This document shows, piece after piece, positions 3 through 37,240 of a stretch of 64,000 nt of DNA. A program made the position numbers and the translations under genes. This stretch comes from Alphaproteobacteria bacterium (GTDB taxonomy: Bacteria > Pseudomonadota > Alphaproteobacteria > Rs-D84), in assembly GCA_017528045.1 (NCBI GenBank), contig JAFXPG010000014.1, forward strand, positions 2,252-66,251. Reading direction: 5' to 3'. The first letter of the stretch is position 1, and every line of letters starts with the position of its first letter. The notes under the pieces were generated by a model. The model was not told the origin of the DNA. It worked only from the letters and a program-made list of their open reading frames with translations, and ran no database searches.

Positions 3-230
3 GATGGACATGTTTTTGAAGATGGGCCAGTAACACACACTTTAAAATGTGAAGCCGAGAACCTTTCTTTAAAATCAAGTAATTGTGTAGGTAAAACAAT
101 TGGAGAATGTGATATGCATTTTTATACTTGTTGGCGTGATGAACAACAAAGAAGAAATGCGGGAAAAGCAAGAGATGAATTCTTTAAAGGTTATTCAAAA
201 GAATTAGTCAGTAAAATATGTAGGTCTTAA
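3..230 (+). CDS. 3' end of a CDS entering from upstream of the window; Cys-rich hypothetical protein fragment (75 codons)
   Basis: Frame 3 is open from the window edge to TAA at 228-230 (...CVGKTIGECDMHFYTCWRDEQQRRNAGKARDEFFKGYSKELVSKICRS*). A hairpin terminator follows. No family recognised. Confidence 0.4.
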   Translation, partial: DGHVFEDGPVTHTLKCEAENLSLKSSNCVGKTIGECDMHFYTCWRDEQQRRNAGKARDEFFKGYSKELVSKICRS

Positions 231-5129: not shown

Positions 5130-5240
5130 TTGTATTGTGGTATATTTTATACGTAAAACAGTTTTTTTTCAATCAGATATTTTTTCATTGTATAATGATA
5201 CCAACACTGATAAAATCTTTACAAGAAATGGAAGTGTAAA

Positions 5241-6206
5241 GTGAGAAAAATATTTTTATTATTTTTTATTGTTTTTCAATGTAATGCTTTTGCTGACGAT
5301 TTAGATATAAATAATATTTTACAGATTGTTCGTGAAAATTGTTCAGATATATCAGATGATTTACAAGAAATGAAAAAGATAGCAGGTATAAATACCGCTG
5401 TAACTGCAGTTGGAACCGGAACAGGTATAGGTGCCGTAGCAACAGGAATTGCAAAGAAAAACACAGATGTAAAAGCTGAAAATTTAGAAATAAGATTGAA
5501 AAAATTGCGTAAAATAGAAGCTGAAAATCCGACTTTAACATCTTTTCAAGATTATAAAGGAATGTTAAATTCTTTGCCAGATTATATGGATGCTGATGCA
5601 GTATTAGCAAAATATTCTTCGTTGACAGAAGCTATTTCAGAAGATCAAAAAAGATTGGATGAATTAACAAAAAAATCTGAAAATTTAGGTAATTGGCGAA
5701 CAGGTTTGATGGCAGGAACAACAGCAACAGCTGTTGCAGGAACAGCTATTTCTGCAACAAATAAAGTTGATGAAGATTTAGAAACAAAAGTTAATAATTG
5801 TATAAATTCTGTTGATAAATTACGTGAACAAATTGTTATACATAAATTAAATAATGAAGATGTTTCTTATTATCAAAATATTGTTGATGTTTGCCAAGAT
5901 TATAAATATATAGATTTATCTGTTATAAATAAACGTGCAACTGGTGCATTGGTGTCTTCTGCTGTTGCAACAACCACTGGTGTGACAGGAACAATATTAA
6001 GTGCTATTTCAAACAGTAAAAAAATTAGAGATGATAACAGTGAATCTGGTAAAGAAAAAGAAAAGAATTTAAATACTTCTTCAAATGTTTTAGCAGCAGG
6101 TACAACCATAGCCAGTGCTTCTTCTACTGTATTTAATGCATTACAAATAAAAGAAATAAAGAAAGTAATTGAAACCGCAGAAAAATGCAGTGAACTTTTA
6201 AAGTGA
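5241..6206 (+). CDS. Secreted Gly/Ala/Thr-rich Cys4 protein (cassette partner, paralogue 1 of 2)
   Basis: GTG start and signal peptide MRKIFLLFFIVFQCNAFA. Four G/A/T/S-rich hydrophobic segments. Clear paralogue of 45402-46331, with shared blocks NTAVTAVGTG, LGNWRTGL, INKR.TGA and EKNLNT..NVL and four conserved Cys. Confidence 0.75.
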   Translation: MRKIFLLFFIVFQCNAFADDLDINNILQIVRENCSDISDDLQEMKKIAGINTAVTAVGTGTGIGAVATGIAKKNTDVKAENLEIRLKKLRKIEAENPTLTSFQDYKGMLNSLPDYMDADAVLAKYSSLTEAISEDQKRLDELTKKSENLGNWRTGLMAGTTATAVAGTAISATNKVDEDLETKVNNCINSVDKLREQIVIHKLNNEDVSYYQNIVDVCQDYKYIDLSVINKRATGALVSSAVATTTGVTGTILSAISNSKKIRDDNSESGKEKEKNLNTSSNVLAAGTTIASASSTVFNALQIKEIKKVIETAEKCSELLK

Positions 6207-6213
6207 GATAAAT

Positions 6214-7230
6214 ATGAGAAAATATTTTTTTATATTATATGGTTTGTTTGTTTGCTGTAATGGTTATGCAGCAGCACCACATAACTATAAAGCAGACCTT
6301 GAAAATATTTTAGAAGAAGAAAGAATTGCTTTTGATTCAATGGTGGTAGAAGATACTATAAAAAATAATATGCATTCAAATTATTATGATGTTGAAACTG
6401 CTGCAAATACTTATGATATGTTGGCAGAAAAGAATAATGGTTATTTTTCTTTAACAGAATTGTTCTATGTTTGTTTGCAATCTTTTATAGATAAACCGAT
6501 TAATGCGTGGAATGCATGCAAAAGAGATTTTATAGTTCCATTGTTAATGGAATCTGATGAATTATCTTTTATAGATGATGTTATAGTTGAAGCTTACGAT
6601 GGACATTCGTTTAATCAACCATGCAGGCCGCCAGAAACAGAACCAGCAAAAGGTGGTCTGGTTAGAAATGCAATTTGTACAACTGGATATTATGAAGATA
6701 TTGATCCTGCTTTCGAAAAGGCTATGATTACTAAATTTAGAACAGAAGGCGGTTGTGCTTATGTTAACGATGGTAATGGGAAAACTTGTTATGGTGTAGC
6801 AGGAAGAGTTCATCCAGAAGTATATAGAAAAGATTTTTCCAGAGCTGATGCCGAAAGAATTGGATACACACATTATTATACAAAGTATAATATAGATAAA
6901 TTGCCTGATGCTATACGAGGTGATGTTTTTATGGCTGTATGGGGGACAGGTAGTGCTTCTAGATCTATTAAGTTATTACAAAAAGTAATGGGAATATACC
7001 AATCGGGTGAAATTGATGAAGAAACAATATCTGCTGCAGAAAATTATGCCGGCAATTTAAGAAAAGAATTCTTAAAAGCAAGATGGAATAATATGAAACA
7101 TAATGGAAATTTTTCAAATGGTTGGGCAAAAGCTTTTATCGTATATCTAAAGAATGGTTGTCATACGGTTCCTTCAATACCATTAGAACGCAATGAAGAA
7201 ACAGTTGCAGAATGTAAAAAAATGCAATAA
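6214..7230 (+). CDS. Secreted protein with C-terminal GH108-type (COG3926) N-acetylmuramidase domain
   Basis: Signal peptide MRKYFFILYGLFVCCNGYAAA. The C-terminal half FRTEGGCAYVNDGNGKTCYGV...GDVFMAVWGTGSASRSIKLLQKVMG...GEIDEETISA matches the GH108 pattern (EGG..D..G.T.YG...D.A.N.G...A...LQ...G...DG.IG..T). Confidence 0.72.
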   Translation: MRKYFFILYGLFVCCNGYAAAPHNYKADLENILEEERIAFDSMVVEDTIKNNMHSNYYDVETAANTYDMLAEKNNGYFSLTELFYVCLQSFIDKPINAWNACKRDFIVPLLMESDELSFIDDVIVEAYDGHSFNQPCRPPETEPAKGGLVRNAICTTGYYEDIDPAFEKAMITKFRTEGGCAYVNDGNGKTCYGVAGRVHPEVYRKDFSRADAERIGYTHYYTKYNIDKLPDAIRGDVFMAVWGTGSASRSIKLLQKVMGIYQSGEIDEETISAAENYAGNLRKEFLKARWNNMKHNGNFSNGWAKAFIVYLKNGCHTVPSIPLERNEETVAECKKMQ

Positions 7231-7280: not shown

Positions 7281-8321
7281 TTAATACTTTTGTTTTTGTA
7301 GTTGTTTTAATAATGTATGTTCTATTGTATAAGAAGATAATTCTGTTGCTGATTGTTTATATGCTTCAAAGTTTTCACTTGGTTCTTTGTATGTTATTTT
7401 ATCTTGTTGGATTAATTGTGGACCAACTGCACCCAGTTCTGGTTTTAATGAATCTATGCTATGATTTAATTCATGTGCAAGTATGGTAATCATATTATAA
7501 AAAAAGTTATTACTTAAATTTTTTGAATTTTTTATATTATTAAAATGCAATCTTATGAATGATACAGGCTTGGAACATGGATAAGTAGAAGGAGATTTCA
7601 TAAATTCGTGCTTTATTTTCTTTATTTCTTTATCTGATAAACCTTGTGGAATTTCCAGTCTGTAACCAACAGTTTGATAACCTTTTTCTCTGCTGTCTTG
7701 ACATTTAGGTTTTATATCAGATTTTTTCCAATCGTCTATTATTTTAACAGAAATTCTGTCAGGGCCTAACCCGTAATCTGAACAAAAATCAGCAGTCAAT
7801 GCATTAAACAATTTTTGGTATGCTTGTTTTTCATAATCTTTTTCGGCTTTTCGTGCAGCATTAACCAATTTTTTGTTTTTATTTAACCTTTGTATCCAAT
7901 CGTATGCGACTTGTTCAGATAAATCAAATCGGTTTAAAGTAAGATAATAAAAAGCTTCACGTATTTCTTCTTCAGGTACACGATTCTTTATGTTTTTTGC
8001 AAGTTTTTTTGAAAAACTGTTAAAAGCACCTTTTATAAAATCTAAATCTTGAGATGCTGCCATTTGAAATATAGATAAGTTTCTTGGTCTATATTTGTCT
8101 AAACTAATAGCTTTTTTTAATCTTGATATGTATTCATCAACTGTGAAATCGTGTATTTCTAACATTTTTTTACACATAGGATGAATTTGTGACTTTATAT
8201 CAGATTGTTCTTGTTTTGTTTTTGCTTTTTTATATTGTTCTAATAATTTTATATTATCTCGAACTATTTGTATTTCAATATTACTTCTGCTTTTGTTAAA
8301 AATTATTGATTTATCTTTCAT
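7281..8321 (-). CDS. Hypothetical protein with C-terminal HExxH zinc-metallopeptidase motif
   Basis: 346-aa Lys/Glu-rich ORF with an ILAHELNHSID motif near the C-terminus. Family not recognised. Confidence 0.6.
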   Translation of the reverse strand: MKDKSIIFNKSRSNIEIQIVRDNIKLLEQYKKAKTKQEQSDIKSQIHPMCKKMLEIHDFTVDEYISRLKKAISLDKYRPRNLSIFQMAASQDLDFIKGAFNSFSKKLAKNIKNRVPEEEIREAFYYLTLNRFDLSEQVAYDWIQRLNKNKKLVNAARKAEKDYEKQAYQKLFNALTADFCSDYGLGPDRISVKIIDDWKKSDIKPKCQDSREKGYQTVGYRLEIPQGLSDKEIKKIKHEFMKSPSTYPCSKPVSFIRLHFNNIKNSKNLSNNFFYNMITILAHELNHSIDSLKPELGAVGPQLIQQDKITYKEPSENFEAYKQSATELSSYTIEHTLLKQLQKQKY

Positions 8322-8372: not shown

Positions 8373-9050
8373 ATGAAAAAATTGATGATATGGGATTTTG
8401 ATGGTGTTATTGCTGACAGCGAAAAATTATGGGTTCAATGTTGGGATGAAATATTAGTTAAAGAGAAAAATATAAAATTGACTGATTTAGAAAAACAAAA
8501 TTTATTGGTTGGTGTTTCTGATAAAACCCGCAAAGAAAGACTTGAAACCCTTATACCAAATTTAAAATTAGATGATGATTTTATCAAGAAAATTAGTGAT
8601 ATGGAAGTTTATATGGGAACTAATTTTATGACGGCTATACCTGGGGTTGAAGATGTTATGAAAAATAATAATTTTGAACATTGTATTGCAACAGGTGCAA
8701 CCAAGGAACAGCATGAATGGAAAATGACACAATTCAAATGGATTGAAAAATATATGACATCAAAAGATTTTTTTACGGTAGATATGGTCGAACATGGTAA
8801 GCCTGCACCAGATTTGTTTTTATTAGCAGCAAAAACAAAAAATTATTCATCAGAAAATTGTATTGTTATTGGTGATAGTGTTAATGATTTTATTGCTGCA
8901 AAATCTGCTAATATGAAATGTATAGCCTTTATTGGTGCAACTGGCAACAATAACAAAGAATATCGTAAAGTATGTGAACAACATAATGTTGATGCGATAT
9001 GCGAAAATATGGAAGAAGTGAATAAATTTATTTCTGGTTTACAGAACTAG
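8373..9050 (+). CDS. HAD-IA family hydrolase (beta-phosphoglucomutase-like)
   Basis: Motif I MIWDFDGVIADSE and motif IV GDSVNDFIAAKSANM. Confidence 0.85.
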   Translation: MKKLMIWDFDGVIADSEKLWVQCWDEILVKEKNIKLTDLEKQNLLVGVSDKTRKERLETLIPNLKLDDDFIKKISDMEVYMGTNFMTAIPGVEDVMKNNNFEHCIATGATKEQHEWKMTQFKWIEKYMTSKDFFTVDMVEHGKPAPDLFLLAAKTKNYSSENCIVIGDSVNDFIAAKSANMKCIAFIGATGNNNKEYRKVCEQHNVDAICENMEEVNKFISGLQN

Positions 9051-9783
9051 ATTTTTCATTGTTGAAATAAATATTTGCATATTCTGCCATTACATCCACA
9101 ATAATACCTCTGTATCCAAATTTATCCCAATTATGTGAACATGTCACCAATGCAGGTTTAAAATCTTCAAAAGCTGTTTGATCCCAATCTATAAAGAAAG
9201 TGATATCAAAAGTTTTAGTATCTAACATAAAATTCTGCCAAATATCATGTTGAAACCATCCATATAAAAATCCAGGTTTCGCATCAGGTGTTGGTTTTAA
9301 ATCACGTATTTCTTGTGGGTCTGATTTTCCAATAACGTATAAAAAATTCGCAAGTTGTTTTGCGATATGTGTTTGATGTGCACCAATTACAGATGGTTTT
9401 ATATCTGTTAATAAAGTTCCCTTGGCAAATTCATATTCACGGATATAGATGTTTTTGTATTGTATAATTTTCATCTTAGGAATTTTTATAGGTGAAATAT
9501 CATAAAAAACATCTGTTATGCGTTTTTCACGCAAAGCTGTTTCTTTACCATCATTAAGCAAAGGAAATTTAAAAACACGTTCATCATTTAAAATAACAAT
9601 AAAATTTTTACAACCGTACCCAACAGTAGTTGTTATTTTTCTTTTTTTCATATTGCGTGAAATATCACGTATATAACGAACATATTCATGTGTTTGAGGA
9701 AAACGTATCATTGTTCTTATTTTGTCGCGTAAAGACTTTTTTGCTATGAAAGCACAAACAATATTTGATAAAAAATGTCTCAT
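9028..9783 (-). CDS. Kinase-like protein (APH/choline-kinase-like fold, tentative), paralogue 1 of 3
   Basis: Basic N-terminal helix (AFIAKKSLRDKIR), a GW.Q.D...NF block and an IDWD motif. Paralogous to 13075-13764 and 15521-16240. Confidence 0.65.
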   Translation of the reverse strand: MRHFLSNIVCAFIAKKSLRDKIRTMIRFPQTHEYVRYIRDISRNMKKRKITTTVGYGCKNFIVILNDERVFKFPLLNDGKETALREKRITDVFYDISPIKIPKMKIIQYKNIYIREYEFAKGTLLTDIKPSVIGAHQTHIAKQLANFLYVIGKSDPQEIRDLKPTPDAKPGFLYGWFQHDIWQNFMLDTKTFDITFFIDWDQTAFEDFKPALVTCSHNWDKFGYRGIIVDVMAEYANIYFNNEKSSSVNQK

Positions 9784-13074: not shown

Positions 13075-13764
13075 TTAAAAATACATTGTGTATTTTATTT
13101 TTTTTGTTCGTTGGTGAAGATCTTCTTTGAAACGTTTGCCAAAGTCACAAAAAGTTGTGCCTTCCCAATCGATAAATGCTTTTATTTTTAATGTTTTTGG
13201 ATCCATTATAAAATTATACCATAAATCATTTTGATACCATCCGTACATAAAAGATGGTTTTTTATGTGGTGTCGGTTTCAAATCACGAATTTCTTTTGGG
13301 TCAGCTTGTCCGATTTCATATAAGAATTTAGCCAACTGTTTTATGATGATATCTGCATATTTTATACGTTTTTTGATAGAAAAAGAGTCTAAAGATACAC
13401 CTCTTATAAATTCATATTTCCTTACTGTTATATTATTCCAGTTAATTATTTCCATTTTTGGAATTTTTATAGAAGACAAAGGACGCAACGCATCTGTGAT
13501 TCTTTTTTCTCGTATTGCTATTTCTTTACCGTCTGTTTTTATAGGAAATTTAAAAACCATACTATCATCCACAATGACAACGAAATTATGACAACCAAAA
13601 CCAATAGATGTTTTTATTTTAGGATGTTTTTTTGTGCTATGAGATTTAGCAAATTCTATCATTTTTACTATAGTGTTATGATATTTTAATTGCATACGAA
13701 TACGGTTGCGTCTATTACGGTTTGGAATAAAGCCACATATAATATTTATAAGCAATTTTTTCAT
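13075..13764 (-). CDS. Kinase-like protein, paralogue 2 of 3; C-terminus truncated by a frameshift at a homopolymer
   Basis: Same architecture as 9028-9783 and 15521-16240. The conserved family tail (LLQEYTNIYMNNIKK*) lies in another frame downstream of the A8/T8 tract at 13098-13105 and ends at 13019. Confidence 0.7.
   Translation of the reverse strand: MKKLLINIICGFIPNRNRRNRIRMQLKYHNTIVKMIEFAKSHSTKKHPKIKTSIGFGCHNFVVIVDDSMVFKFPIKTDGKEIAIREKRITDALRPLSSIKIPKMEIINWNNITVRKYEFIRGVSLDSFSIKKRIKYADIIIKQLAKFLYEIGQADPKEIRDLKPTPHKKPSFMYGWYQNDLWYNFIMDPKTLKIKAFIDWEGTTFCDFGKRFKEDLHQRTKKIKYTMYF
13098..13105. repeat. Homopolymeric T8 (A8 on the coding strand) inside the 3' end of the kinase-like paralogue 2
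   Basis: Counted directly in tattttaTTTTTTTTgttcg. A +1 or -2 slip restores the conserved C-terminal tail. Confidence 0.9.
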
Positions 13765-15520: not shown

Positions 15521-16240
15521 TCATTTTTCATATAATTTTAAATATTCTTGTAAAATGCTTGTCATTACAGAACGATAATCTTTTTCATAAGTAAACAAAT
15601 AACAAAAATCATTAAAACCAACATCTTCCCAATCTATGATTGCTATTATATCAAATGTTTTCGGATTCATTATAAAATTGTATTTTATATCATTTTGACA
15701 CCATCCGTGTAATATTGAAGGTTTTTTATTTGATGATGTTTTATATTTACGAAGTTCTTTGGGGTCGTTTTTACTGATAATATATAAGAACTTAGCCAAT
15801 TGTTTAGCAATTTTTATTTCTATATCGTGTGGAACTTTTTTAGGATGAAAGTATTCAAGATTTATTCCTGATATATATGGGTATTTACGAACAGCTATAC
15901 CGTCAAAATCTAATATTTCCATGTCTGGTATTTTAATTGGTGAAATTTTGCGAAATACATCTGTGATTTGTTGTTCTCGTAAAGATTTTTCATATCCATT
16001 GTTGTTTTTTGGAAATTTAAATACGTATTTATCATCAGCTGTCACAACCAAATTACGTGACCCATGTCCAATGACTTTTTTTATGTTTTTAAAATTACCT
16101 TGAGATTTAACAAATTTTACACATTTGTTAACATAGTTCCAATTTTCTAACAAAAAACGAACACGGTTACGACGATGACGATCAGGAATAAATTTACAAA
16201 TAATGTTAATAAATATTTTTTTCATATGTTTTATTGCCAT
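15521..16240 (-). CDS. Kinase-like protein, paralogue 3 of 3
   Basis: KFIPDRHRRNRVR N-terminal helix, GWCQNDIKYNF, IDWED, and tail ILQEYLKLYEK. Confidence 0.65.
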   Translation of the reverse strand: MAIKHMKKIFINIICKFIPDRHRRNRVRFLLENWNYVNKCVKFVKSQGNFKNIKKVIGHGSRNLVVTADDKYVFKFPKNNNGYEKSLREQQITDVFRKISPIKIPDMEILDFDGIAVRKYPYISGINLEYFHPKKVPHDIEIKIAKQLAKFLYIISKNDPKELRKYKTSSNKKPSILHGWCQNDIKYNFIMNPKTFDIIAIIDWEDVGFNDFCYLFTYEKDYRSVMTSILQEYLKLYEK

Positions 16241-18858: not shown

Positions 18859-19308
18859 ATGACTCATGCAGAAGTGACACAATTAATGGCTGAAAATATG
18901 CGTATTATTGGTCGTTTGTCCAGCAGGTTAAATCCATTATTTGAACAAACAACCAAAAATTCCAGACAACAAATGTCTGTTTTGGTGCGTTTATATTTGG
19001 CTGGAAAAATTAAATTGAAAGATTTTGCAAATCGTGAAGTTATTTCAACAGCTAATTTATGCAGTGTGTTTCGTAAATTAGAATCTGATAAATTGGTTGT
19101 GCGTTCTATTGATTCAAATGATCACCGTGATACTTGGTATGAGGTAACAAAATCTGGTAAAGTTTTGGCTGAAAAATTAATAGACAAATTTATGTTGGAA
19201 TTAGAAAAAATTTGTAAAGTTTTGCCAAAAGAAGATGAAGATGCTTTGGCTGAAACAGTAAGAACTATGAATGGTATTTTGAAAAAAATGGAGTTAGCAA
19301 ATGCGTAA
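18859..19308 (+). CDS. MarR-family transcriptional regulator
   Basis: 149 aa with a winged-helix core (QMSVLVRLY...LKDFANREVISTANLCSVFRKLESDKLVVRSIDSNDHRDTWYEVTKSG). Stop overlaps the TolC-like start. Confidence 0.85.
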   Translation: MTHAEVTQLMAENMRIIGRLSSRLNPLFEQTTKNSRQQMSVLVRLYLAGKIKLKDFANREVISTANLCSVFRKLESDKLVVRSIDSNDHRDTWYEVTKSGKVLAEKLIDKFMLELEKICKVLPKEDEDALAETVRTMNGILKKMELANA

Positions 19309-20611
19309 ATTTTTGTTGTATGTTTTTTGTGTTTTGATGGTTGTACCAAATGCTTTTGCAATGGATTTATCTTTGGATGAAGCTATTGATAAAATTGTTG
19401 CAGAATCTAATGATTTAAAAGCTGCGGATGCTAATGTTACAAAAGCAAAAGCTCAATTAAAATCTGTTAATGCAAATCGTTGGATGTCTATTGATGGAAC
19501 AATGGCATATATGAATTTGTTTGATCCTACAGATCCAACAAATTCCCAAGGTATAAAAATTCCATCAGATATAGGTGCGATATTACAACATTCTCCATTA
19601 CCATTGGGCGAAATTCCTGATAATATATTTTCTGCAGAAATACAAGTTACACAACCAATATATACATTTGGAAAAATAGGAAATGCTGTTGATGCTGTTC
19701 ATGATGCAATAGATATGTCAAAATCCGCAAAAGAATTAACTAAACGCGAAGTTAAATATGCTGCTGCTAATTTGTATTGGACAGCTAAAATGACAGATGA
19801 AATTGTTGCAGCCAGTGAGCGTAATTTGAATAATGCGCGCAGTGCAAAGAAAAAATTGACTGCCGCTGGTCGTGCTAATCGCAGTAATTTGATTAAAATT
19901 GAATCTGATATTGCATCAAAAGAAATAGATTTATCTGATGCACAATTTAATCGTGATACAGCTTACAGAATGTTAAAAATTATGGCTGGTATTGATGAAA
20001 ATGAAGATGTTGTTTTAACAGATAATTTCCCAGATAAATTTGAACCTTTGGAAATAAAAGAATTAAAGTCTAATCCAGAATGGGATATTTATCAAAAACA
20101 AATAAAAATGTATGAATCTAATGCGTCATCAAAACGTTCAGGTGCTTATCCAACATTGGCAGCGGTTGGTTCTTACTCTTATTATTCTATGGGATCATCT
20201 GTTGATAATATGTTTGATAAAGAAGGTGCACAAGGTGCTTATTGGGGGTTGGCTTTGAAAGTCCCTTTGTTTAATGGTGGTTTGCATTCTGCAAATGCTA
20301 CAATTGAAGCGATGAATGCCGAAACTGCACGTCAAGATTTGGATAAATCTAAAAAATTAAAAACAGAAGAATATAATACTGCAGTTAAAAAATATAAACA
20401 TTTATGTGATGATTTGGGCAAATTAAACGAAGCTTATTCTTTGGCACAGAAAGCATATGATGTTTCTGTAAATCGTTTTGCAGCAGGTCAAACATCTGCA
20501 ATTGAATTATCTGATGTGTCCAGTGCTTTATACAGAATGGATATGGCTTTGTTAAATGCAAAATACAATATTGTAATGTCAAAAGAATCTGTTAAAAAAT
20601 TGGGTGAATAA
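19301..20611 (+). CDS. TolC-family outer-membrane efflux protein
   Basis: Signal peptide, LSLDEAIDKIVAESNDLKAA start and two repeated coiled-coil/beta halves typical of the TolC/OEP family. Confidence 0.85.
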   Translation: MRKFLLYVFCVLMVVPNAFAMDLSLDEAIDKIVAESNDLKAADANVTKAKAQLKSVNANRWMSIDGTMAYMNLFDPTDPTNSQGIKIPSDIGAILQHSPLPLGEIPDNIFSAEIQVTQPIYTFGKIGNAVDAVHDAIDMSKSAKELTKREVKYAAANLYWTAKMTDEIVAASERNLNNARSAKKKLTAAGRANRSNLIKIESDIASKEIDLSDAQFNRDTAYRMLKIMAGIDENEDVVLTDNFPDKFEPLEIKELKSNPEWDIYQKQIKMYESNASSKRSGAYPTLAAVGSYSYYSMGSSVDNMFDKEGAQGAYWGLALKVPLFNGGLHSANATIEAMNAETARQDLDKSKKLKTEEYNTAVKKYKHLCDDLGKLNEAYSLAQKAYDVSVNRFAAGQTSAIELSDVSSALYRMDMALLNAKYNIVMSKESVKKLGE

Positions 20612-21233
20612 AATGACTAAGACTGAAAGAATAGAAAATATTGTTAAAAAATTAAAAACACGTAAATCTAAAGGTATAATTTATACAATTGTTATTTTTT
20701 GTGTTGCTGCTTTGTTTGGATACAGATTTTATGCCGTTTCACAAGAAAACAATTTTGAAGTTTTTAATATTATTCGTGACAATATGGAAAACGGTTTACC
20801 TGTTGAAGTTTTAAATATGGAAAAAACAGATGGTGTTTTAATGGAGCCTTTGACTGTGAAAAATAATACAGCATATGTATCTGGTGCTCGTATTAAATAT
20901 TTTAAATCGGGTCAAAAAATGGATAATTGTAAAATTGTTTCTGTATCTTCAGAAATAGATTTAGATTCGGGTATGTATGTTATAAAAACTGATAAGTGTG
21001 TGGATGGTTTACATTATGCAGAAAATAAAAAGAATGGTTTTTATGTTCCTGTATCTGCAATTCGTGGAAATTCTGTATACGTTGTAAATAATGGTGTTGC
21101 ACAAATTCGTGATATAGTTATTGATAATCGTGATGCACAAAATGTTTTGATAAAATCTGGGTTAGAATCTGGAGATATTGTTATTTTATCAAATGTTCAA
21201 AATAATCAAAAAATTAAAATTATAAATAAATAA
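20604..21233 (+). CDS. Unusually short (209 aa) periplasmic adaptor (MFP)-like protein
   Basis: N-terminal TM anchor. The C-terminal YVPVSAIRGNSVYVVNNGVAQIRDIVIDNRDAQNVLIKSGLESGDIVILS matches the beta-barrel/MP-domain end of RND adaptors. There is no obvious alpha-hairpin. Positioned between the TolC and RND genes. Confidence 0.6.
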   Translation: MNKMTKTERIENIVKKLKTRKSKGIIYTIVIFCVAALFGYRFYAVSQENNFEVFNIIRDNMENGLPVEVLNMEKTDGVLMEPLTVKNNTAYVSGARIKYFKSGQKMDNCKIVSVSSEIDLDSGMYVIKTDKCVDGLHYAENKKNGFYVPVSAIRGNSVYVVNNGVAQIRDIVIDNRDAQNVLIKSGLESGDIVILSNVQNNQKIKIINK

Positions 21234-21248
21234 ACAAAGGAAAAAGAA

Positions 21249-24200
21249 ATGTTAAAATTTTTTATTCGCAGACCTGTCACAACAATTATGTTTGTTTTGT
21301 TCTTTGTTATTTTGGGAATAGTTTCTTTCCCAAAAATGAATATAGAAAGAACTCCTTCTGTTGATTTTCCTTATGTTACAGCAACGTTTATTTATCCTGG
21401 GGCATCCAGCGAAGAAATAGAAACACAAGTTGTTAAAAAAGCAGAAAATGCAATGTCTGAAGTTGCAGGTATAAAAAAGATTACATCTCAAGTTTACGAA
21501 AATAGTGCTTTTGTTATTTCTGAATTTAATTTGGGTGTAAATGTTGATGATAAAGCAAACGAAGTTAAAGCAAAAATAGATGGTTTAGCAAATGAATTTC
21601 CAGATGATTTGAAAAAACCGGTAATTGAAAAATTAAATCCTTTGCAAACTTCCGTTTTGGATATAGTTATCAGCGGTGGTAATCCAAGAGATGTTGAAAA
21701 GTATGTATCGGATACATTATCTAATAAAATTACAGCCGTTAAAGGTGTTGCATCTGTGAATACTTTTGGTGGTTTACAACGTGCTGTACGTATTGCGATG
21801 GATCCTGATTTAATGGCTGCACGTGGGGTTACAATAACAGATATTGTTTCTGCTATAGCTACACATAATTTAAATGTTCCTGGGGGAAAGATAGAAACAT
21901 CCATTAATTCTGAAAATGTTCGTTTCGTTGGTGAATTCCAAAACGTTAAAGAAATTGAAAATTTGGAAATAACGACAGTCGAAGGTGAAACTTTTAAACT
22001 TTCTGATGTTGCCAATATACACGATGCTGCGCGTGATATAGAAAAAGGTGCAATACATAATGGTGAAAATGTTGTTATTATGTCTGTTGTTAAAGCAAGT
22101 GACGGTAATGCAATAAAGATATCAAATGCTTTACATAAAAAAATACCAGAATTGGAATCTGATTTAAGAAATCATTTTGCAGATGCAAAAATGGAAATTG
22201 TATCTGATTCTTCTGTCCATATTTCAGAAGATACAAATGATACTATCAACGGTATTATTTTAGGGGTTATATTTACCATTATAGTTTTATTAGCATTTAC
22301 ACGTAATTGGCGTTCTACAATTATTGCTGGTGTTGTGATACCTGCATCTTTGTTATCAGGATTCTTTTTAATGAATGGTTCTGGATTTACAATTAATACA
22401 ATGACTTTGTTGGCTTATGCTACTGCGTTGGGAACGTTGGTATCAAATGCGATTATTTTGATTGAATCTGCATTAACAGAATTACGCGCAGGAAAAACAC
22501 CGGATATAGCAGCAGAAGAAGGAACTAGAAAAGTTGCGGTGCCTGTTTTAGCAGGTGTTGGGACTAATGTTGTTGTGTTCTTGCCTTTGGCGTTTATGGG
22601 GGGAATTGTTGGTCAATTCATGTTGCAATTTGGTATGACAGTTGTTTATTTAACATTGTTATCTTTATTATTTTCTTTTACTTTAACACCAATGATGATT
22701 GCAAAATTATTAAGATTGCCAGCACATAAACAAACAAAACAAGATTTGAAAGAAATTAAAATACATAATGAACAATCTCGTTTGCGCAGTTGGTATGATT
22801 ATCAATTTAAACATCCTTTTATTGTTATTTTGGGTGCTTTAGTTGTTTTAATAATGTCAGCACAATTGATGAAGTTTGTTGGAAATGAATTTTCCCCTTC
22901 TACTGATGCTAATGAAATAACAATTACTGCACGTACACCGATGGGAAGTGTGTATGCAAAAACTGAAGCAATAGCAAAAGAAATAGAAAACAGAATTTCT
23001 AAATTTCCAGAAGTAGAATCTACAACTATCAAAATAGGGGATAGAGGTGTTCAAAATATAAACATTAAGGCAACATTGGTTGATGTTGAAAAACGTGGTA
23101 TATCTGATAAAAAATTAGCACAAAAAATGTTGCCTGTTTTAGCTGATATCAGTGATGCTGAAATTCAAATTCGTGCAGGGGAAAATATCAGTGGGTCTGG
23201 TATCAGTTCAGATATTGTTTTGAATATTTATGGTGAAGATGATGCTAAACGTAATGCTTATGCAAATCAAATTGTGGATATGGTAAATAAAATTGATGCT
23301 GTACAGAGTGCTGTATTAGCACAACAAATTCCTGCAAATGAAATTCGTTTTGTTCCAAACAGTGAAAAGATGAATTTCTGGGGTGTAAAAAATGCTCAAG
23401 CAGGTTCTACATTACGTACATCTTTATTTGGAAATGACAATTATAAATATAAAGAAAAAGGTGATGAATACCCAATGATTTTGGAATTTGATAAACAATT
23501 TAAAAAACAATCTATGTTTGACAGTGTTTATGTAAATTCTCATAAAGGTATGGTGGCTCTTTCTCAATTGGGAAATATAGAAAATGTACCTGCTACATCC
23601 AATATTTATCGTATTAACAAAGAACGTGTTACAGAAATAGATATCAATATAGGTAAATCTACAATTGGACCGGTCCAAGCTGAAATTCAAAAACATTTGG
23701 ATGCAATTAAGTGGGAAAATGGATACAGTGCTTCTTTTGCTGGAATGTCTGAAATTCAAGGTGAATCTACAGCGGAAATTGCACAAGCGTTCTTGTTGGC
23801 TACAATATTAACATTTATGTTATTAGCCGCAATTATGAATTCGTTTATACATCCTTTTACAATTGCAACTTCTATAATAACCAGTTTTGCAGGTGTATTT
23901 GTAGTATTGTTCTTATCTGGGGCTTCTATGAATGTTGGTGCTATGTTAGCTTTTATTATGTTGGTTGGTTTGGTGGTTAATAATAATATTTTGGTATTGG
24001 AACCAACTGTTGTTCGTGTTCAAAAAGGTGAAGATGCAAAAATTGTATTGTGGCAAGAATTAATGGATAAAAAACGTATGATTTGGATGACCACAATTGC
24101 TGTTGTTGCAGGTATGATACCTCAATTATGGGCAAATGATGGACTGAAAGTTGCTATGGGTGCAGTTATGATTGGTGGTATGTGTGCATCTTTGATATGG

Positions 24201-24275
24201 ACTTTCAGTTTAACACCAGCTTTATTCTTTGTAATGGAAAAGTTACGTAAGAAAATATACGGACAAAAACACTAA
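21249..24275 (+). CDS. RND efflux transporter (AcrB/HAE1 family)
   Basis: 1008 aa with an MLKFFIRRPVTT..MF start and a 12-TM / two-large-loop layout typical of AcrB. Confidence 0.95.
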   Translation: MLKFFIRRPVTTIMFVLFFVILGIVSFPKMNIERTPSVDFPYVTATFIYPGASSEEIETQVVKKAENAMSEVAGIKKITSQVYENSAFVISEFNLGVNVDDKANEVKAKIDGLANEFPDDLKKPVIEKLNPLQTSVLDIVISGGNPRDVEKYVSDTLSNKITAVKGVASVNTFGGLQRAVRIAMDPDLMAARGVTITDIVSAIATHNLNVPGGKIETSINSENVRFVGEFQNVKEIENLEITTVEGETFKLSDVANIHDAARDIEKGAIHNGENVVIMSVVKASDGNAIKISNALHKKIPELESDLRNHFADAKMEIVSDSSVHISEDTNDTINGIILGVIFTIIVLLAFTRNWRSTIIAGVVIPASLLSGFFLMNGSGFTINTMTLLAYATALGTLVSNAIILIESALTELRAGKTPDIAAEEGTRKVAVPVLAGVGTNVVVFLPLAFMGGIVGQFMLQFGMTVVYLTLLSLLFSFTLTPMMIAKLLRLPAHKQTKQDLKEIKIHNEQSRLRSWYDYQFKHPFIVILGALVVLIMSAQLMKFVGNEFSPSTDANEITITARTPMGSVYAKTEAIAKEIENRISKFPEVESTTIKIGDRGVQNINIKATLVDVEKRGISDKKLAQKMLPVLADISDAEIQIRAGENISGSGISSDIVLNIYGEDDAKRNAYANQIVDMVNKIDAVQSAVLAQQIPANEIRFVPNSEKMNFWGVKNAQAGSTLRTSLFGNDNYKYKEKGDEYPMILEFDKQFKKQSMFDSVYVNSHKGMVALSQLGNIENVPATSNIYRINKERVTEIDINIGKSTIGPVQAEIQKHLDAIKWENGYSASFAGMSEIQGESTAEIAQAFLLATILTFMLLAAIMNSFIHPFTIATSIITSFAGVFVVLFLSGASMNVGAMLAFIMLVGLVVNNNILVLEPTVVRVQKGEDAKIVLWQELMDKKRMIWMTTIAVVAGMIPQLWANDGLKVAMGAVMIGGMCASLIWTFSLTPALFFVMEKLRKKIYGQKH

Positions 24276-27718: not shown

Positions 27719-27788
27719 CGTATACCTTTACGAATTGAATCACAGGCCTTTTTATGGTATAATTTTACCAACACAAAAGGTCTTTTTT

Positions 27789-30700
27789 ATGCCAGATTTT
27801 ATACCTTATTCAGAAAAACAACAAATATTGCCTGTTGAAGTATGGGAAAGAGAGCGTTGCTTAGATTTAGATTGCCAGACTGCAAAAGTAGCGACAGCAA
27901 CTATGCGTGCCATTGTAAGCCGTCTTTTAAGCATTGATAAAACAGGCAAATGTAATGTAGATGATTTTGAATTCATAGTTTTTGATAATGACCAACCAAA
28001 TGCAGAGTTTGTGTCTGATAAAAAAACATTAAACCATAAAAATGTTATAGCTATAACAACTGGTATCCAAGGTTTATGTAAAAACGAAGATGAATTGGCC
28101 GGAATTTTAGCACATGAACTGGGGCATTATACATATCATAAAATTTATGGTGAAAATAATAATACAGTATTCCAAGAACGTTTTTCTGATTTACATGCTT
28201 TGGATTTAATGATTGCTGCTGGGTATAATCCTGTGGCTTATTCTAATGTTTGTGAAACTATGCGAGGACATTCGTCTTCATCTTTTTTTGATGTTCATGG
28301 ATCAAGCATGGCACGAAAAGAAGATGTAGATGCATATTTAACAAAACTACATAAAGAGCAGGGATTTTTCAAAGTAGGTGCATCAACCGGTCTGTGGGGT
28401 GATTTTTCTAAAATAATAAACAGTCACACGGACGTATATAAATCGTATTTTAGACAATTATTAGAAAATAATTTTCCAGAAATGTCATGGAATCCTTTCT
28501 ATCAGCCTTCGATAAAACGTATTTTTGATTTGATTTTATCTGAAATGAAAAAAGGCAGGTTTACCAATTATCAACGTGTTAAAGATATGGTTGAATATCT
28601 GGAAAAAGAAGCACCTGCAAAGTTAGAAATAAAAAGTACACAAACTTTTTTGGAACAAGTGGTGGATTTCTGTATTCAAAATCCTTCATTTGGAATGATG
28701 TTGCCAATAGATGATTTATGTCGGGCTTTAAAATCAAAATTTCGTGGTGATAAACCGTTTGAGGTGTTCCCGCCAATAGATCAAGAATTTGCCAAGATAG
28801 ATGAATTTAAGACAACCCGTGATCCGGTGCGTGCTGAAGAGTTGGCAAGATATTTAATGAATAGTCACGATAAAATATTTTCAATTTATTCATTAACAGC
28901 CTTTTTTAACAAACAAACACAATTTAAAATGCCGTTACGTGCCATAGCTAAAGGTCACACAATGCCAACAGATTGGTTGTATTCTGTATATAATGAATCT
29001 GTGCGTAGACATGAGCGTTCTGTAATAGTGGATTTAATACAAGCAATTGGTTTTGATTGTGAATATGAATGGATTACTGATAAAACAAAAGGTTTTTATG
29101 CAGATGAATATTCAGGTAAGATTTTAGCAACTGGTAAAAAAGAAGTCGAAAAAGTAAAGGCACAAAGACAACGTCAAAATGAATATCAAAATAAACATGA
29201 ATCGTTTGGTGATTTTATGTGTGCAATAAATTTACTTTATGAATTCAATCAAGGAAATATATCTGCTGGTGATGTGGTAAATCGTTTGGAACAACATGGT
29301 AAAGAACCAGGTCGTCGTGTGTTATACGATATGGATAGTTTTGTTTATTGGCTAGATTCATCTGTTAAATTGATTGATTACAAACATGAAAATACTTTCT
29401 TAAAATCTGAAATACAAGAATTAAATAACAGTAAAGCTTTTGCGGAAATATATATTAAACCTTTCTTGGCAATAATAAGAACAGCTTTGCAACAGGTGGC
29501 TCCAAAATTGGCATCACAAATACAGTTAGATAAACCGCCACACGATAAAACATTGTTAGAATATTTACAATATGTCTTTGTGAAATTTGTTAATTTAAAA
29601 AGAGATTTTCGTGCTTCTAGTGTATTAGAAGAAAAAGTATCTGATGCTTTATACAGTGTCAGTAAAAAAATGGGTTATCAAGATGACGGTGATTATTATA
29701 TGACATGGAATGTCGAACTTGGACCGGTTGTAAGAATTGTAACAGACGTATATATGGAAAAATTGCATTCGCTGATAATGAATTTTGTAAATGCTGCAAT
29801 AAAAGAAAAAGTATATTCTGAATCAAGTGCTGCTAGAATATTATTGTCGCAATTAGATAAATCTAATAGATCTGGAGATTGGCATGATATTTCAGAAAAT
29901 GAAATTATCAACGTTATACAAAATATATTAAAACAACAGGTTATCCCACAATTACAGTCAGATATTGTTGAAAACACTTATATGCATTTGTCCAAAGGAC
30001 AATGGCTTAGCAGTAATTTAACTGAAGAATTGGATGAAGAAATCAAACAAAAAACAGATTTGCACAAAATCCAACGTTTGTTATATGTGTGTGATATGTT
30101 GCCAAATAATGAACAGGAATTGCTAGAAATATTATACAGACCAACTCCGCAATTAAAAAGAGATGGCTATTCTCTAATGGAGGTCAATTTAAAACAGTAT
30201 CTTTTAACGTATTACATACGTAAGAAAATGCCGATAACAAATTTATATTCATTATTGATTGCAATAAAATCTGATAAAGTTGTGAATTTATCGGATAATT
30301 TCATAGAAGAATTTTCTGATTACATAGATTCAAACGGTTTGATGCCAACTGATTTTAAAGGATTGTATGATTTGCATGCTGTTATGCAAAAATTAAACAT
30401 TTTTTCAAAAGAAAAATTTGGCTATGCAAAAATGCTAGATTTATTAATATCGCACATTGAAAAAATGCCACAACCACTTTGTGAAATATATTCTTGGAAT
30501 TTATTGTCTGGTTTTTATTATGGTGATGACAGTGCTTTAAGATATTTAAATCGAAATTCCACAGATATAGGTTCAACTGTGGCCAGACAAAAATTGATAG
30601 AAATATATTCTGATGCTGTTGCCCAGCGTCTGGGACGTGATGATAGCACCCCTGCGTATTTTGCTAAAATTCAAGAATTAACAGAATTTATTAACCAAAA

Positions 30701-35884: not shown

Positions 35885-36892
35885 TTATTCTATACCATTG
35901 ATACCTTTTTTACATAATTTTGCATAGATAGGTTTGTCTAAACCGTATGCCTTTATCAGGTTGCTTGGTTTCTGATTGCACCAGAGATCGTGATAGGAAA
36001 CTATGCCGTTTTTAATCGTTTTTATCAGACTACTGGGCAACTCGGCACGTCCGATGCACGAAGACAGGTAAACAAAGCATTCATCGTTGTCGGCTAAGTT
36101 TTCGCACGCAAGGATACGGGCATATACATTAAGGGTCAAATCTGCCTTGCTAGCGTCCTTTGTCCATGGACTGCCACCACCAATCGGACAGGCAGTAGAA
36201 TAAAAGTCACAGGCTAATTTACGTCCTGTAATACCACAGTCTGCGATAGAACCATGATATGTATAACGTCCGGTACCGTTTATGATGATGTGCGCTGGCT
36301 TTTCGCCTAGGACAGAAATCACAAAACCGGTCAAATCTTCATCGTGCAGCATTGGTATTGCCACAATAGCGGTTTCAATCTTGTCGTCGTTCAATGTGAT
36401 TTGTGTCTTGATATCTATGCCAAGATTATCGGATTGACGAGCCTTATCGTACAGGGCTTTGTTCAGCTTTCGGGCTAGGAATAGTTCCCTGTTTATCTTA
36501 CCTTCGCCTTGGCAGGCATAACCAACAAACACCCCTTGATCGCCCCAGCCGTCAGCAACAACCCCACGATTGATATCTGCCGATTGAATGCCAATTAAAT
36601 TGGTAACCTTTATTTGCGCTGGATTGATTGCAAGATCGCCCCATATTGATGCGTACCGGTCATCATAGCCGATTTCGGCAAGGGCGGCCTTAACATATGC
36701 GGTCAAATCACCGAGTGGGGCAGAGGTGGTAACTTCGCCACCAAGGACGACATTGTTGTCTTTTATCAAGACTTCAACGGCATATTTGACCTGTGGATCT
36801 TGTTCTATTAACCGATCCAAAATGTAACTGGAAATGTAATCGGCGACTTTATCTGGGTGTCCAAGCGACACCGCTTCTGCTGTTCTTTGCAT
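35885..36892 (-). CDS. metK: Divergent, short (335 aa) S-adenosylmethionine synthetase (MetK-family) protein; visibly GC-richer than its surroundings
   Basis: GHPDKVADYIS, GDQGVFVGYA, DCGITGRK and GGGS.W.KDASKAD match the MetK motifs GHPDK.AD, GDQG.MFGYA, D.GLTGRK and GGGAFSGKD.SKVDRS. About 50 aa shorter than E. coli MetK. Confidence 0.8.
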   Translation of the reverse strand: MQRTAEAVSLGHPDKVADYISSYILDRLIEQDPQVKYAVEVLIKDNNVVLGGEVTTSAPLGDLTAYVKAALAEIGYDDRYASIWGDLAINPAQIKVTNLIGIQSADINRGVVADGWGDQGVFVGYACQGEGKINRELFLARKLNKALYDKARQSDNLGIDIKTQITLNDDKIETAIVAIPMLHDEDLTGFVISVLGEKPAHIIINGTGRYTYHGSIADCGITGRKLACDFYSTACPIGGGSPWTKDASKADLTLNVYARILACENLADNDECFVYLSSCIGRAELPSSLIKTIKNGIVSYHDLWCNQKPSNLIKAYGLDKPIYAKLCKKGINGIE

Positions 36893-37066
36893 AATTCACT
36901 CCTTTGGTTTTTGCAGTAAGAACCAAAGGTGGATTCATGTAGCTACCAACACAGGCAGAATTGCACTGTGCAAAATGCGGCATAAAGTATAGGAAAATTT
37001 GCATATAACAACTCCTTGTTTAGTCCATTTAAAGGTAGGACAAGTCAGGTTAAATCCACCTTGATT
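36893..37066 (-). promoter_or_regulatory. Structured ~170-nt 5' leader of the MetK-like gene (candidate riboswitch or translational attenuator)
   Basis: A 10-bp long-range helix pairs AAGGTGGATT (37053-37062 on the plus strand as aatccacctt) with 36926-36935. A local hairpin CCTTTGGTT-N11-AACCAAAGG (36901-36929) has a 3' arm that contains the AAAGGAG ribosome-binding site. Confidence 0.4.
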
Positions 37067-37072
37067 AAGAAT

Positions 37073-37101
37073 AGTATAACAAACCTCGATAAAAAAATCA
37101 A
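37073..37101 (-). promoter_or_regulatory. Sigma70-type promoter for the MetK-like gene
   Basis: Minus strand TTGATT (37096-37101), 17-nt spacer, TATACT (37073-37078). Confidence 0.5.
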
Positions 37102-37211
37102 TACATAATGGGCCGTTTGAGACAGAAGTGGTATGCAAATATGTACAAATTTGGTTGGTTCTGGTTGTATGTAATGTAGTTTGTGGCAATTTTGCAACAA
37201 AAACAGACATT

Positions 37212-37235
37212 AAAAAATCCGCAGAAATCTGCGGA
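37212..37235 (-). terminator. Rho-independent terminator immediately 3' of tRNA-Asn
   Basis: Minus strand TCCGCAGatttCTGCGGAtttttt. Confidence 0.7.
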
Positions 37236-37240
37236 AATCT

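Follow-up and report, generated by a model that had tools for sequence, protein, structure and literature searches.

The 64,000-nt window analysed here (contig JAFXPG010000014.1 of assembly GCA_017528045.1, from an Alphaproteobacteria bacterium of Rs-D84) encodes two copies of a two-gene cassette. Each copy consists of a gene for a putatively exported helical protein, hereafter the partner, and, directly downstream, a gene for a second signal-peptide protein, hereafter the cargo (partner1 and cargo1 in copy 1, partner2 and cargo2 in copy 2). Comparison of related loci revealed a genomic rule, in which a partner gene is followed by a cargo gene whose product begins with a shared N-terminal module (N-module) and continues in an interchangeable body. 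We tentatively interpret the cassette, at a probability of about 0.45, as a partner-dependent system for the escort and the export or delivery of proteins, which would resemble MafA/MafB in function and is unrelated to them in sequence. Both cassettes had been recognised in the initial annotation of the window, at 5241-7230 and from 45402 on, and the four open reading frames (ORFs) exist as described there.

Partner and cargo genes form a conserved pair

The rule was derived from 80 loci, fetched out of 296 confirmed partner copies after scanning one genome per GTDB species. Wherever the contig continues, a signal-peptide ORF follows the partner gene on the same strand, mostly with an ATGA overlap (gap -4), and no other neighbouring family that might be a third component was present in more than 8 of 79 loci. 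Copy 2 of the window has the ATGA overlap that the initial annotation reported; the spacer of copy 1 is 7 nt (6207-6213) and not, as given there, 8 nt.

A hidden Markov model (HMM) of the N-module, built from the first ~100 mature residues of large cargos only, was searched against the ORFs of the 80 loci and of the window. It matched 60 of ~8,000 ORFs, all of them directly downstream of a partner gene, and these included cargo1 (E 1.3e-5, aa 37-116) and a family of ~290-aa cargos. The N-termini of cargo1 and cargo2 had initially been described as weakly related by eye. In a pairwise comparison that includes the signal peptide they are 23% identical (E 3e-4), and with signal peptides removed, profile-profile alignment of the GH108-cargo N-domain with the large-cargo N-terminus gave an hhalign probability of 97.5% and E 6.6e-12 over 80 columns, against E 0.51 for a reversed-sequence control, which bears the relation out. 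The module has two conserved Cys and forms four helices in the AlphaFold2 (AF2) model of cargo2 (aa 36-106, pLDDT ~80-90).

The bodies attached to the module fall into several classes. Short cargos carry a GH108 domain (the window, L079 and L081), a GH73 glucosaminidase (L074) or a YkuD/Tlde1-type L,D-transpeptidase fold (L006), or belong to the ~290-aa family, which lacks any known domain; the large cargos are described below. Trypsin-like proteases also follow partner genes (L053, L004, L009) but are absent from the N-module HMM matches. In a neighbour-joining tree of the partners, computed without bootstrap, the three GH108-linked partners (window, L079, L081) form one clade and seven of the eight partners of the ~290-aa family cluster together; that partner clades track cargo class is, on such a tree, indicative only. 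Taken together, the genomic rule and this co-diversification argue for a direct functional, and probably physical, link between partner and module. The combination of a conserved partner and a variable payload, which the initial annotation had read from two copies, thus extends over the 80 loci, in the constancy of the gene pair, in a module found only behind a partner and in the shuffled C-termini of the large cargos.

A predicted GH108 muramidase as the cargo of copy 1

The C-terminal part of cargo1 had been assigned to the GH108 muramidases from its motifs. Its match to PF05838 (E 1.7e-7) reaches 32.1 bits, above the gathering score of 21.2, which places cargo1 in the family, and sequence comparison with the PDB gave 7dnp (E 9e-6 over aa 167-305) as well as 2is5 and 2ikb (both E 0.012). 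The catalytic Glu of the EGG motif, which the initial annotation had singled out for checking, is present as Glu178 and is invariant in 21 relatives of cargo1, as are Asp186 and Thr191. These residues correspond to the lysozyme-like triad of TtsA, Glu14/Asp19/Thr28 (PMC6996933). Glu and Thr of cargo1 align with 7dnp, with a Glu-Thr loop that is one residue shorter and an uncertain equivalence of the Asp. PF09374 is carried by two relatives (P0137 and P0157), and Pfam does not call it in cargo1. On these matches, a GH108 muramidase domain whose candidate catalytic residues are all intact is predicted at the end of cargo1, and the protein may, we infer, act as the toxin effector that was initially proposed.

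Cargo1 has 39 homologues, about 20 of them full length. With the phage-type endolysins and TtsA (PMC6996933; 7dnp, 2ikb, 2is5) it shares the catalytic domain with the EGG motif, the Glu/Asp/Thr candidates and a helical substrate-binding half. It differs from them, besides the shorter Glu-Thr loop, in its Sec signal peptide, in an N-terminal extension of ~145 aa that contains the module, in the 8 Cys of its mature chain, and in being paired with a partner gene and not with a holin or a toxin islet. The same GH108 domain occurs with another N-terminus in another gut alphaproteobacterial lineage (L083:1429-7089). There, signal-peptide proteins of 311, 497, 556 and 362 aa are encoded in an operon of overlapping genes, the fourth of which carries the domain; a prepilin peptidase gene adjoins the operon, which lacks a partner gene. 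Such partner-less operons, with other N-termini on the domain, suggest that GH108 is a module recruited to the cassette.

The gene next to cargo1 (7281-8321, minus strand), named in the initial annotation as an immunity candidate, found no support in that role: it is convergent with cargo1, its 346-aa product has no signal peptide, and no homologue lies beside the GH108 cassettes of relatives. The product carries an HExxH motif (AHELNHS) and has no Pfam match. More generally, no homology links the flanking genes of the GH108 cassettes when the window, L081, L088 and L090 are compared. In L081, the gene immediately ahead of this cassette encodes a 1625-aa protein with a weak Peptidase_M48 match (L081:119-4996).

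Mosaic architecture of the large cargos

About 52 of 71 downstream proteins, cargo2 among them, are 900-1,800 aa long; their first 550-600 residues are common, and similarity collapses beyond. The constant N part comprises a signal peptide, the N-module and a region of 400-570 aa with 16-30 Cys, and is followed by a G/A-rich hydrophobic segment of 35-50 aa and often by a stretch with 2-5 Cys and a further hydrophobic helix. Cargo2 follows this layout, with its signal peptide, the module at aa ~28-108, a Cys-rich region (16 Cys up to aa 470), the hydrophobic segment at aa 470-513, a 4-Cys stretch, a second hydrophobic helix at aa 604-622 and a variable C-terminal region. Cys makes up 4.8% of the N parts and 0.44% of the C parts, and the last 461 residues of cargo2 contain none; this distribution would fit an oxidising compartment for the N part and translocation of the C part.

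Pairwise comparison of 51 large cargos revealed that the N part can be aligned in all 1,275 of 1,275 pairs and the last 350 aa in 212. Among the 61 pairs with at least 60% identity in the N part, the C-termini were unalignable in 31 and at least 60% identical in 4. The reverse pattern, similar C-termini on dissimilar N parts, was found in 19 pairs, for example cargo2 and the large cargo of L038 (25% identity in the N part, 48% in the C part). Cargo2 and P0161 are 82-100% identical up to about aa 600 and 36-48% identical or unalignable after ~625, and the breakpoint falls just past the hydrophobic helix and an x-P-E motif. These comparisons indicate that the C-termini of large cargos are shuffled and that cargo bodies are modular.

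For the conserved half of a large cargo, the AF2 model (pLDDT 66.5) had a best Foldseek match of E 0.12, and no fold was assigned. PF03536 labels, precomputed on three homologues, were not reproduced at E <= 0.01 and were dropped. In P0163, a homologue of cargo2, the extreme C-terminus (aa 958-1011) is a DnaJ J-domain (E 5e-7, above the gathering score); this end of the protein would therefore meet Hsp70, either in the cytoplasm of the producer or in a target cell. Within its variable C-terminal region (window positions 48290-48750 and 49140-49330, aa ~655-805 and ~940-1000), cargo2 itself contains two internal repeats of ~90 aa (Y.RI.I.D.D.V ... G.FVSSG ... F..WDN...NWL). Its terminal domain (PFYVSSG.AGK ... 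G.W ... WFNK), which matches no known family, recurs in otherwise different cargos, including P0161, P0165, P0167, P0169, P0174 and P0176.

Mosaic C-terminal domains that bear no toxin signature would also be expected if the large cargos were variable surface adhesins or antigens, attaching the cell to a bacterium, a protist or the gut epithelium and diversifying at their C-termini under host or immune selection. The partner would then be an anchor or assembly factor, and the enzyme cargos would open the wall locally at the contact site. The multiple divergent copies per reduced genome, the lack of detectable immunity genes, the long variable coiled-coil stalk of some partners and the partner-dependent lifestyle proposed for the lineage (PMC12306168) are consistent with this alternative. 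However, neither adhesin-type repeats nor known adhesin domains were detected, a disulfide-rich N-half of 400 aa followed by a hydrophobic helix would be unusual in surface proteins that cross the outer membrane, and the same module and partner also serve small enzyme cargos in which no adhesive part is obvious. We regard an adhesin or antigen role as quite improbable.

The partner family

Along the full length of partner1 and partner2, BLASTP gave 40% identity (E 5e-70), which makes them the paralogues that the initial annotation saw in them; the motif blocks quoted there coincide with the most conserved columns of an alignment of 25 family sequences. Four Cys, already described as conserved between the two copies, are invariant in this alignment (C34, C187, C218 and C316 in partner1 numbering), and the invariant polar motifs AGINTA, LGNWRTGL and EK.LNT start the small-residue helices. 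The aligned family members have N-termini equivalent to that of partner1, and no lipobox Cys is conserved. The four segments that had been recognised as rich in G, A, T and S reach 60-68% of these residues in partner1, and the rest of the protein contains 16% of them and 37% charged residues. Within the segments the spacing is of the small-xxx-small type only, with 0-2 strict GxxxG motifs each.

At least 1,328 homologues of partner1 were found at E <= 1e-3, all of them unnamed or hypothetical and none with a Pfam domain, and a profile search of 1.84 billion representative proteins returned 436 clusters at 50% identity. As judged from these matches, the family is restricted to gut Alphaproteobacteria with reduced genomes, namely Candidatus Enterousia and relatives in the order Rs-D84. 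The partner has no match at E <= 0.1 in Pfam or NCBIfam; in Pfam this extends to the families of the Gly-zipper clans. Since the conserved cargo regions likewise match neither library, the initial statement that no known delivery signature is present holds. A profile search of the PDB returned generic coiled coils only (E >= 0.2). The charged hairpin between the first two small-residue helices varies in length, being shorter in partner2 and ~370-470 aa in P0280 and P0330, and a Pfam scan of the longer family members found no informative N-terminal domain, just expanded coiled coil.

The best AF2 model of partner1 (pLDDT 76, pTM 0.63) is entirely helical, with long helices at aa 37-94, 118-173, 178-203, 209-223, 226-257 and 268-320 and the small-residue segments at the base of the charged hairpin. 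The four small-residue helices probably pack into a bundle, and the Cys probably pair into two disulfides. A Foldseek search of this model against the PDB returned nothing significant: the best match was a designed helical bundle (E 0.03), and matches to the ClyA family (YaxAB, AhlB, SmhB and MakA) were non-significant, with E 0.6-1 and TM-scores <= 0.2.

A four-pass inner-membrane topology was considered for the partner, since it would put all four invariant Cys on the periplasmic side. Apparent insertion energies on the Hessa scale lie at +2.6 to +4.7 kcal/mol for the most apolar 19-residue stretches in a set of 25 partners, as against -4 to +2.3 kcal/mol for membrane proteins encoded in the same window as controls, and this applies to all four helices, which weakens the four-pass topology. 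With small-residue helices as polar as this, the partner is more likely exported as a soluble protein than inserted by Sec into the inner membrane; it may associate with a membrane later. The same energies and the Foldseek results speak against the pore or translocator that the initial annotation had suggested.

They also bear on a fuller form of that suggestion, a binary membrane-active toxin, in which the partner helices and the hydrophobic hairpin of a cargo would insert together into a target membrane and carry the C-terminal domain across. The four glycine-zipper-like helices with invariant polar residues, the export of all partner helices with none predicted as stop-transfer, and the Cys-free C-termini, suited to unfolded translocation, are compatible with such a toxin, as are the weak matches to YaxAB, AhlB, SmhB and MakA. 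The bipartite and tripartite alpha-pore-forming toxins (YaxAB, XaxAB, AhlABC, Smh, MakA) likewise combine adjacent genes, long-helix coiled-coil stalks and apolar helical segments. In the cassette, however, the two proteins are not mutual paralogues, the hairpin has its apolar segments at the base and not at the tip, and no significant similarity in sequence or structure to any pore-forming toxin was found; the helices are markedly polar, and the GH108, GH73 and YkuD cargos lack the hydrophobic segment and would act in the periplasm or on an exposed wall, not in the cytoplasm. We consider a binary toxin very improbable.

A possible escort and export route

In the escort and export reading, the partner would be a Sec-exported, all-helical protein, and the cargo would be translationally coupled to it and likewise exported by Sec. 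The first ~80 mature residues of the cargo would form the four-helix, two-Cys module, and the rest would be interchangeable. The partner would bind this module in the periplasm and, as a cognate handling factor, accompany the cargo from the periplasm onwards, be it to the cell surface, into the medium or to a neighbouring cell, much as MafA does with MafB, or TpsB with TpsA, the proteins themselves being unrelated. The GH108 N-acetylmuramidase of cargo1 would cut peptidoglycan in its glycan strands, and its substrate would most plausibly be the wall of other gut bacteria, whether these serve as host, as prey or as a nutrient supply to an organism devoid of most biosynthesis. The large cargos look like multi-domain exoproteins, in which the disulfide-rich N-half would stay folded outside the cytoplasm, the hydrophobic segment would insert in a membrane and the Cys-poor, recombining C-terminal region would be the variable business end. 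Binding of cargo by partner, export beyond the periplasm, the identity of the target and the disulfides are what we infer in this scheme. Export past the producer's outer membrane would explain why an immunity gene is not needed, and the investment of a tiny genome in several divergent cassettes supports an export function. A broader version, in which the partner family is a new minimal Sec-dependent route of export or delivery in diderm bacteria, working through a tag of ~80 residues on structurally unrelated cargos (wall-degrading enzymes as well as ~1,000-aa mosaic proteins with a membrane-inserting segment) and serving an ultra-small, metabolically dependent gut bacterium in attack, attachment or feeding, appears rather doubtful.

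Several observations weigh against the export reading. No consistent coupled ORF that could serve as an immunity gene lies downstream of the cargo, and tblastn of cargo C-termini against all flanks found no orphan C-terminal cassettes, only parts of the same or of tandem genes; together these results argue against a classical kin-directed toxin. The C-termini of the 51 large cargos gave scattered weak matches in Pfam and no toxin family, and neither an NCBIfam family nor a PDB sequence match. In relatives whose identity is 62% and 51%, the GH108 cassette is found at a broadly syntenic site, and its partner and cargo form an old lineage, a pattern closer to that of a stable function than to that of an exchanged weapon. 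Only one of the five AF2 models of the partner was confident, the other four being poor. The hydrophobic segment of the large cargos, with an insertion energy of +1.1 kcal/mol in cargo2 and a median of +1.2 kcal/mol, falls within the range of the membrane-protein controls; it is as hydrophobic as real inner-membrane helices, and the large cargos may be anchored in the inner membrane. Cargo1 is Cys-rich throughout, and narrow outer-membrane channels are not known to pass disulfide-bonded folded proteins. Finally, MreB, RodA and MrdA are reported in the Enterousia lineage, which therefore makes peptidoglycan of its own, and a Sec-exported muramidase would have to stay harmless in transit.

Part of this evidence could be accommodated if the cassette served the producer's own envelope. 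The partner would then be a periplasmic or membrane-associated scaffold or regulator that tethers and controls envelope proteins of the cell through the N-module; the enzyme cargos would be autolysins or remodelling enzymes for growth, for division or for opening the wall to the passage of large proteins, as TtsA-type muramidases do in type 10 secretion, and the large cargos would be envelope proteins anchored in the inner membrane. Such a role agrees with the three classes of peptidoglycan-acting enzymes among the cargos of a lineage that has peptidoglycan, with the lack of an immunity gene, with the syntenic and, within the clade, old GH108 cassette, and with a hydrophobic segment compatible with stop-transfer anchoring; the J-domain of P0163 would fit a cytoplasmic C-terminus, and GH108 enzymes are known as secretion-associated muramidases (PMC6996933). 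Yet GH108 cargos are rare (39 homologues, ~20 full length, against at least 1,328 partners) and hence no universal housekeeping factor, and both the extreme shuffling of C-termini and the several divergent copies per tiny genome would be unusual for housekeeping envelope proteins. Furthermore, the depletion of Cys from the C-termini (none in 461 aa of cargo2) goes below the cytoplasmic expectation, GyrA of the window having 7 Cys in 937 aa, and the cassette has no holin-like component and a cargo with its own Sec signal, unlike TtsA. On balance we consider an own-envelope function unlikely.

Comparison with known export and toxin systems

In its logic, the cassette comes closest to MafA/MafB of Neisseria. 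Once Sec has exported MafB, its passage across the outer membrane requires MafA, a protein of ~34 kDa encoded upstream of MafB, and no other factor; MafA acts through the conserved N-terminal domain of MafB with cognate specificity (PMC7738311). The cassette resembles this system in the ~310-320-aa protein encoded immediately upstream of an exported protein (PMC7738311; PMC4287609), in a Sec-dependent cargo with a conserved N-terminal domain and a variable C-terminus, in the several cognate pairs per genome, and in a partner specificity that tracks the N-terminal domain of the cargo; a single accessory protein is sufficient in Maf. The differences are equally clear. There is no sequence relation, and the partner has no Pfam or NCBIfam match, the presence of a MafA model in either library not having been verified. 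MafA is an outer-membrane lipoprotein of mixed alpha/beta fold; the partner lacks a lipobox and is modelled as all-alpha. No Pfam match to DUF1020 was found in the N-terminal regions of cargo1 and cargo2 or in the other cargos scanned, mafI-like immunity genes and orphan cassettes are missing here, and many cargos would act on peptidoglycan, in contrast to nucleases and other cytoplasmic toxins.

Polymorphic toxins (PMC3482391; PMC4436062) also combine a conserved N-terminal trafficking part with recombining C-terminal domains in multi-copy loci, with a sharp identity breakpoint past a conserved motif, here the hydrophobic helix followed by x-P-E. In contrast to them, the cassette has neither immunity gene nor orphan modules and no match in Pfam or NCBIfam to Rhs/YD, PAAR, TPS, LXG/WXG or MafB; most C-termini match no known toxin domain. 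Small cargos carry GH108, GH73 or YkuD/Tlde1-like domains. As far as these matches go, what the cassette shares with polymorphic toxins is only the architecture of a conserved N-terminus and a variable C-terminus.

Effector adaptors of type VI secretion systems (Eag/DUF1795 and DUF4123) are encoded by a small conserved gene directly upstream of the effector gene, recognise the effector N-terminus and co-evolve with it. They are cytoplasmic and feed a large machine; in the cassette, by contrast, Sec signals are present on both proteins, with no linked secretion machine. Two-partner secretion (TpsB/TpsA, CdiB/CdiA) is not indicated either, with no Omp85 barrel, POTRA or TPS domain found and a partner that is all-alpha in its model and has no Pfam match. 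With regard to type 10 secretion, no holin family matches the partner, whose helices are too polar for those of a holin, and cargo1 carries its own signal peptide.

Further cassettes, lineage and significance

A tblastn search of the window for a third copy of the partner was negative. Two tandem cassettes (L085:944-4990) do lie in the same genome immediately ahead of the window (upstream extension L085), and the second of them has a 477-aa signal-peptide cargo with 15 Cys that overlaps its partner-like gene. The Cys-rich fragment at the very start of the window, which the initial annotation speculatively took for the tail of another payload, is indeed the end of this cargo. Together with copies 1 and 2, the genome thus contains at least four cassettes within ~55 kb, at an expected genome size of ~1 Mb or smaller (PMC12306168). 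Recent duplication of the tandem copies, or recombination between them, is suggested by two features of L085: the products of its partner-like genes are nearly identical over their first ~70 residues, and its first cargo is cut short at 126 aa.

Nearly all of the 80 loci carry the label Candidatus Enterousia or 'Alphaproteobacteria bacterium', and their sources are the guts of humans, chickens, horses and ruminants; in nine assemblies among them, copies lie on two separate contigs. Enterousia, of the order Rs-D84, has genomes of 0.75-1 Mb without glucokinase, tricarboxylic acid (TCA) cycle, respiration or standard transporters and lacks glycolytic steps, and a partner-dependent lifestyle was proposed for it (PMC12306168). 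A full-text search of the literature on Enterousia and Rs-D84 returned no description of the cassette. The window has a G+C content of ~30% and contains gyrA, three tRNA genes and ordinary housekeeping genes. At 18859-24275, a MarR-like regulator gene is apparently followed by genes for a TolC-like outer-membrane factor, a membrane-fusion protein and an RND pump, assigned by synteny with L088, where Pfam labels MarR, OEP, RND-MFP and ACR_tran; the organism is therefore a diderm with an efflux system.

Rs-D84/Enterousia is widespread in human and livestock guts and is suspected to live off partner cells (PMC12306168). The cassette recurs in several divergent copies in each genome, its family exceeds 1,300 members, and neither the partner nor the large cargos match an annotated domain, which makes it the most obvious candidate for machinery behind such an interaction. 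Should the partner prove to be a single-protein handling or export factor keyed to a short N-terminal tag, it would add a new protein-export logic to the few known for diderm bacteria, and the tag would offer a portable means to export or display heterologous cargo. The more conservative readings would also leave three new protein families, all of them unannotated by database comparison (the partner, the conserved half of the large cargos and the N-module), and a genomic rule that links them.

Feature coordinates and neighbouring genes

The features of the cassettes are listed in Table 1. Its promoter element is a candidate only; a consensus promoter scan of the region returned 23 sites against 22.9 expected by chance, and a terminator scan was likewise no better.

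Table 1. Positions of cassette features in the window and, where marked L085, in the upstream extension of the same genome
Feature	Position	Strand	Description
Partner-like gene, first tandem cassette	L085 944-2068		374 aa; E 4e-73; followed by truncated 126-aa signal-peptide ORF
Partner-like gene, second tandem cassette	L085 2514-3563		349 aa; E 2e-74; overlaps gene of 477-aa, 15-Cys signal-peptide protein
C-terminal tail of 477-aa cargo	3-230	+	Last 75 residues of that cargo
Possible extended -10 promoter element	5189-5196	+	TGTATAAT; ~45 nt upstream of partner1; read from sequence; candidate only
Shine-Dalgarno-like GGAAG	5230-5234	+	6 nt ahead of partner1 GTG; read from sequence
Partner1 CDS	5241-6206	+	ORF, GTG start, 321 aa; putative Sec signal peptide; all-helical in model
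Partner1 putative signal peptide, aa 1-18	5241-5294	+	MRKIFLLFFIVFQCNAFA/DD; n-region, h-region and A-x-A pattern read from sequence
Small-residue helix S1, aa 48-72	5382-5456	+	AGINTAVTAVGTGTGIGAVATGIAK; 68% G/A/S/T; highly conserved alignment block
Charged helical hairpin between S1 and S2, aa 73-147	5457-5681	+	AF2 long helices 37-94 and 118-173
Small-residue helix S2, aa 148-173	5682-5759	+	Begins with invariant LGNWRTGL; columns L149-L156 invariant; 65% G/A/S/T
Helical region with invariant Cys187 and Cys218	5760-5930	+	Alignment; AF2 helices 178-203 and 209-223
Small-residue helix S3, aa 231-257	5931-6011	+	67% G/A/S/T; conserved block
Helix S4 (aa 276-300, after invariant EK.LNT) and C-terminal amphipathic helix with invariant Cys316	6066-6203	+	Alignment; AF2
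Spacer from partner1 stop (TGA) to cargo1 ATG	6207-6213	+	7 nt; counterpart of the ATGA overlap in most cassettes
Cargo1 CDS	6214-7230	+	ORF, 338 aa; signal peptide, N-module, Cys-containing linker, GH108 domain with substrate-binding half
N-terminal cargo module, aa 37-116	6322-6561	+	Two conserved Cys, positions 87 and 102
GH108 catalytic domain, aa ~166-246	6709-6951	+	Pfam PF05838 covers aa 176-246
Candidate catalytic residue Glu178	6745-6747	+	Family alignment
Candidate catalytic residue Asp186	6769-6771	+	Family alignment
Candidate catalytic residue Thr191	6784-6786	+	Family alignment
Region equivalent to GH108 peptidoglycan-binding half, aa 247-305	6952-7128	+	Alignment with PDB 7dnp
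Partner2 CDS	45402-46331	+	ORF, 309 aa; partner1 paralogue
Cargo2 CDS	46328-49579	+	ORF, 1083 aa; ATG start; ATGA overlap with partner2 stop
G/A-rich hydrophobic segment of cargo2, aa 470-513	47735-47866	+	Hydrophobicity scan of 51 large cargos; present in every one
Variable C-terminal region of cargo2, aa 626-1083	48203-49576	+	Cys-free; ~90-aa internal repeats; terminal PFYVSSG.AGK domain; no match in Pfam, NCBIfam or PDB

Downstream of copy 1, three paralogous proteins of ~230-250 aa with the N-terminal motif I.C.FIP..R..R are encoded on the minus strand (9028-9783, 13075-13764 and 15521-16240), the first two being 47% identical (E 3e-67). A 1672-aa protein with 16 Cys is encoded on the plus strand at 27735-32753. 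Directly upstream of copy 2 lie a serine recombinase gene (44420-45019) and a divergent gene for a 78-aa HTH-like protein (45016-45252). No convincing long inverted repeats, as expected for DNA inversion of copy 2 by the recombinase, flank the cassette. Between the HTH gene and partner2, an imperfect palindrome of 31 nt (45260-45325, 77% complementary) might be an operator. The stretch at 36000-44300 has a G+C content of 0.33-0.39 as compared with ~0.30; it starts near tRNA-Asn (37241-37316), ends before the serine recombinase gene and includes a gene for a 579-aa protein with 29 Cys (38488-40227), and it may be an integrated element beside copy 2.

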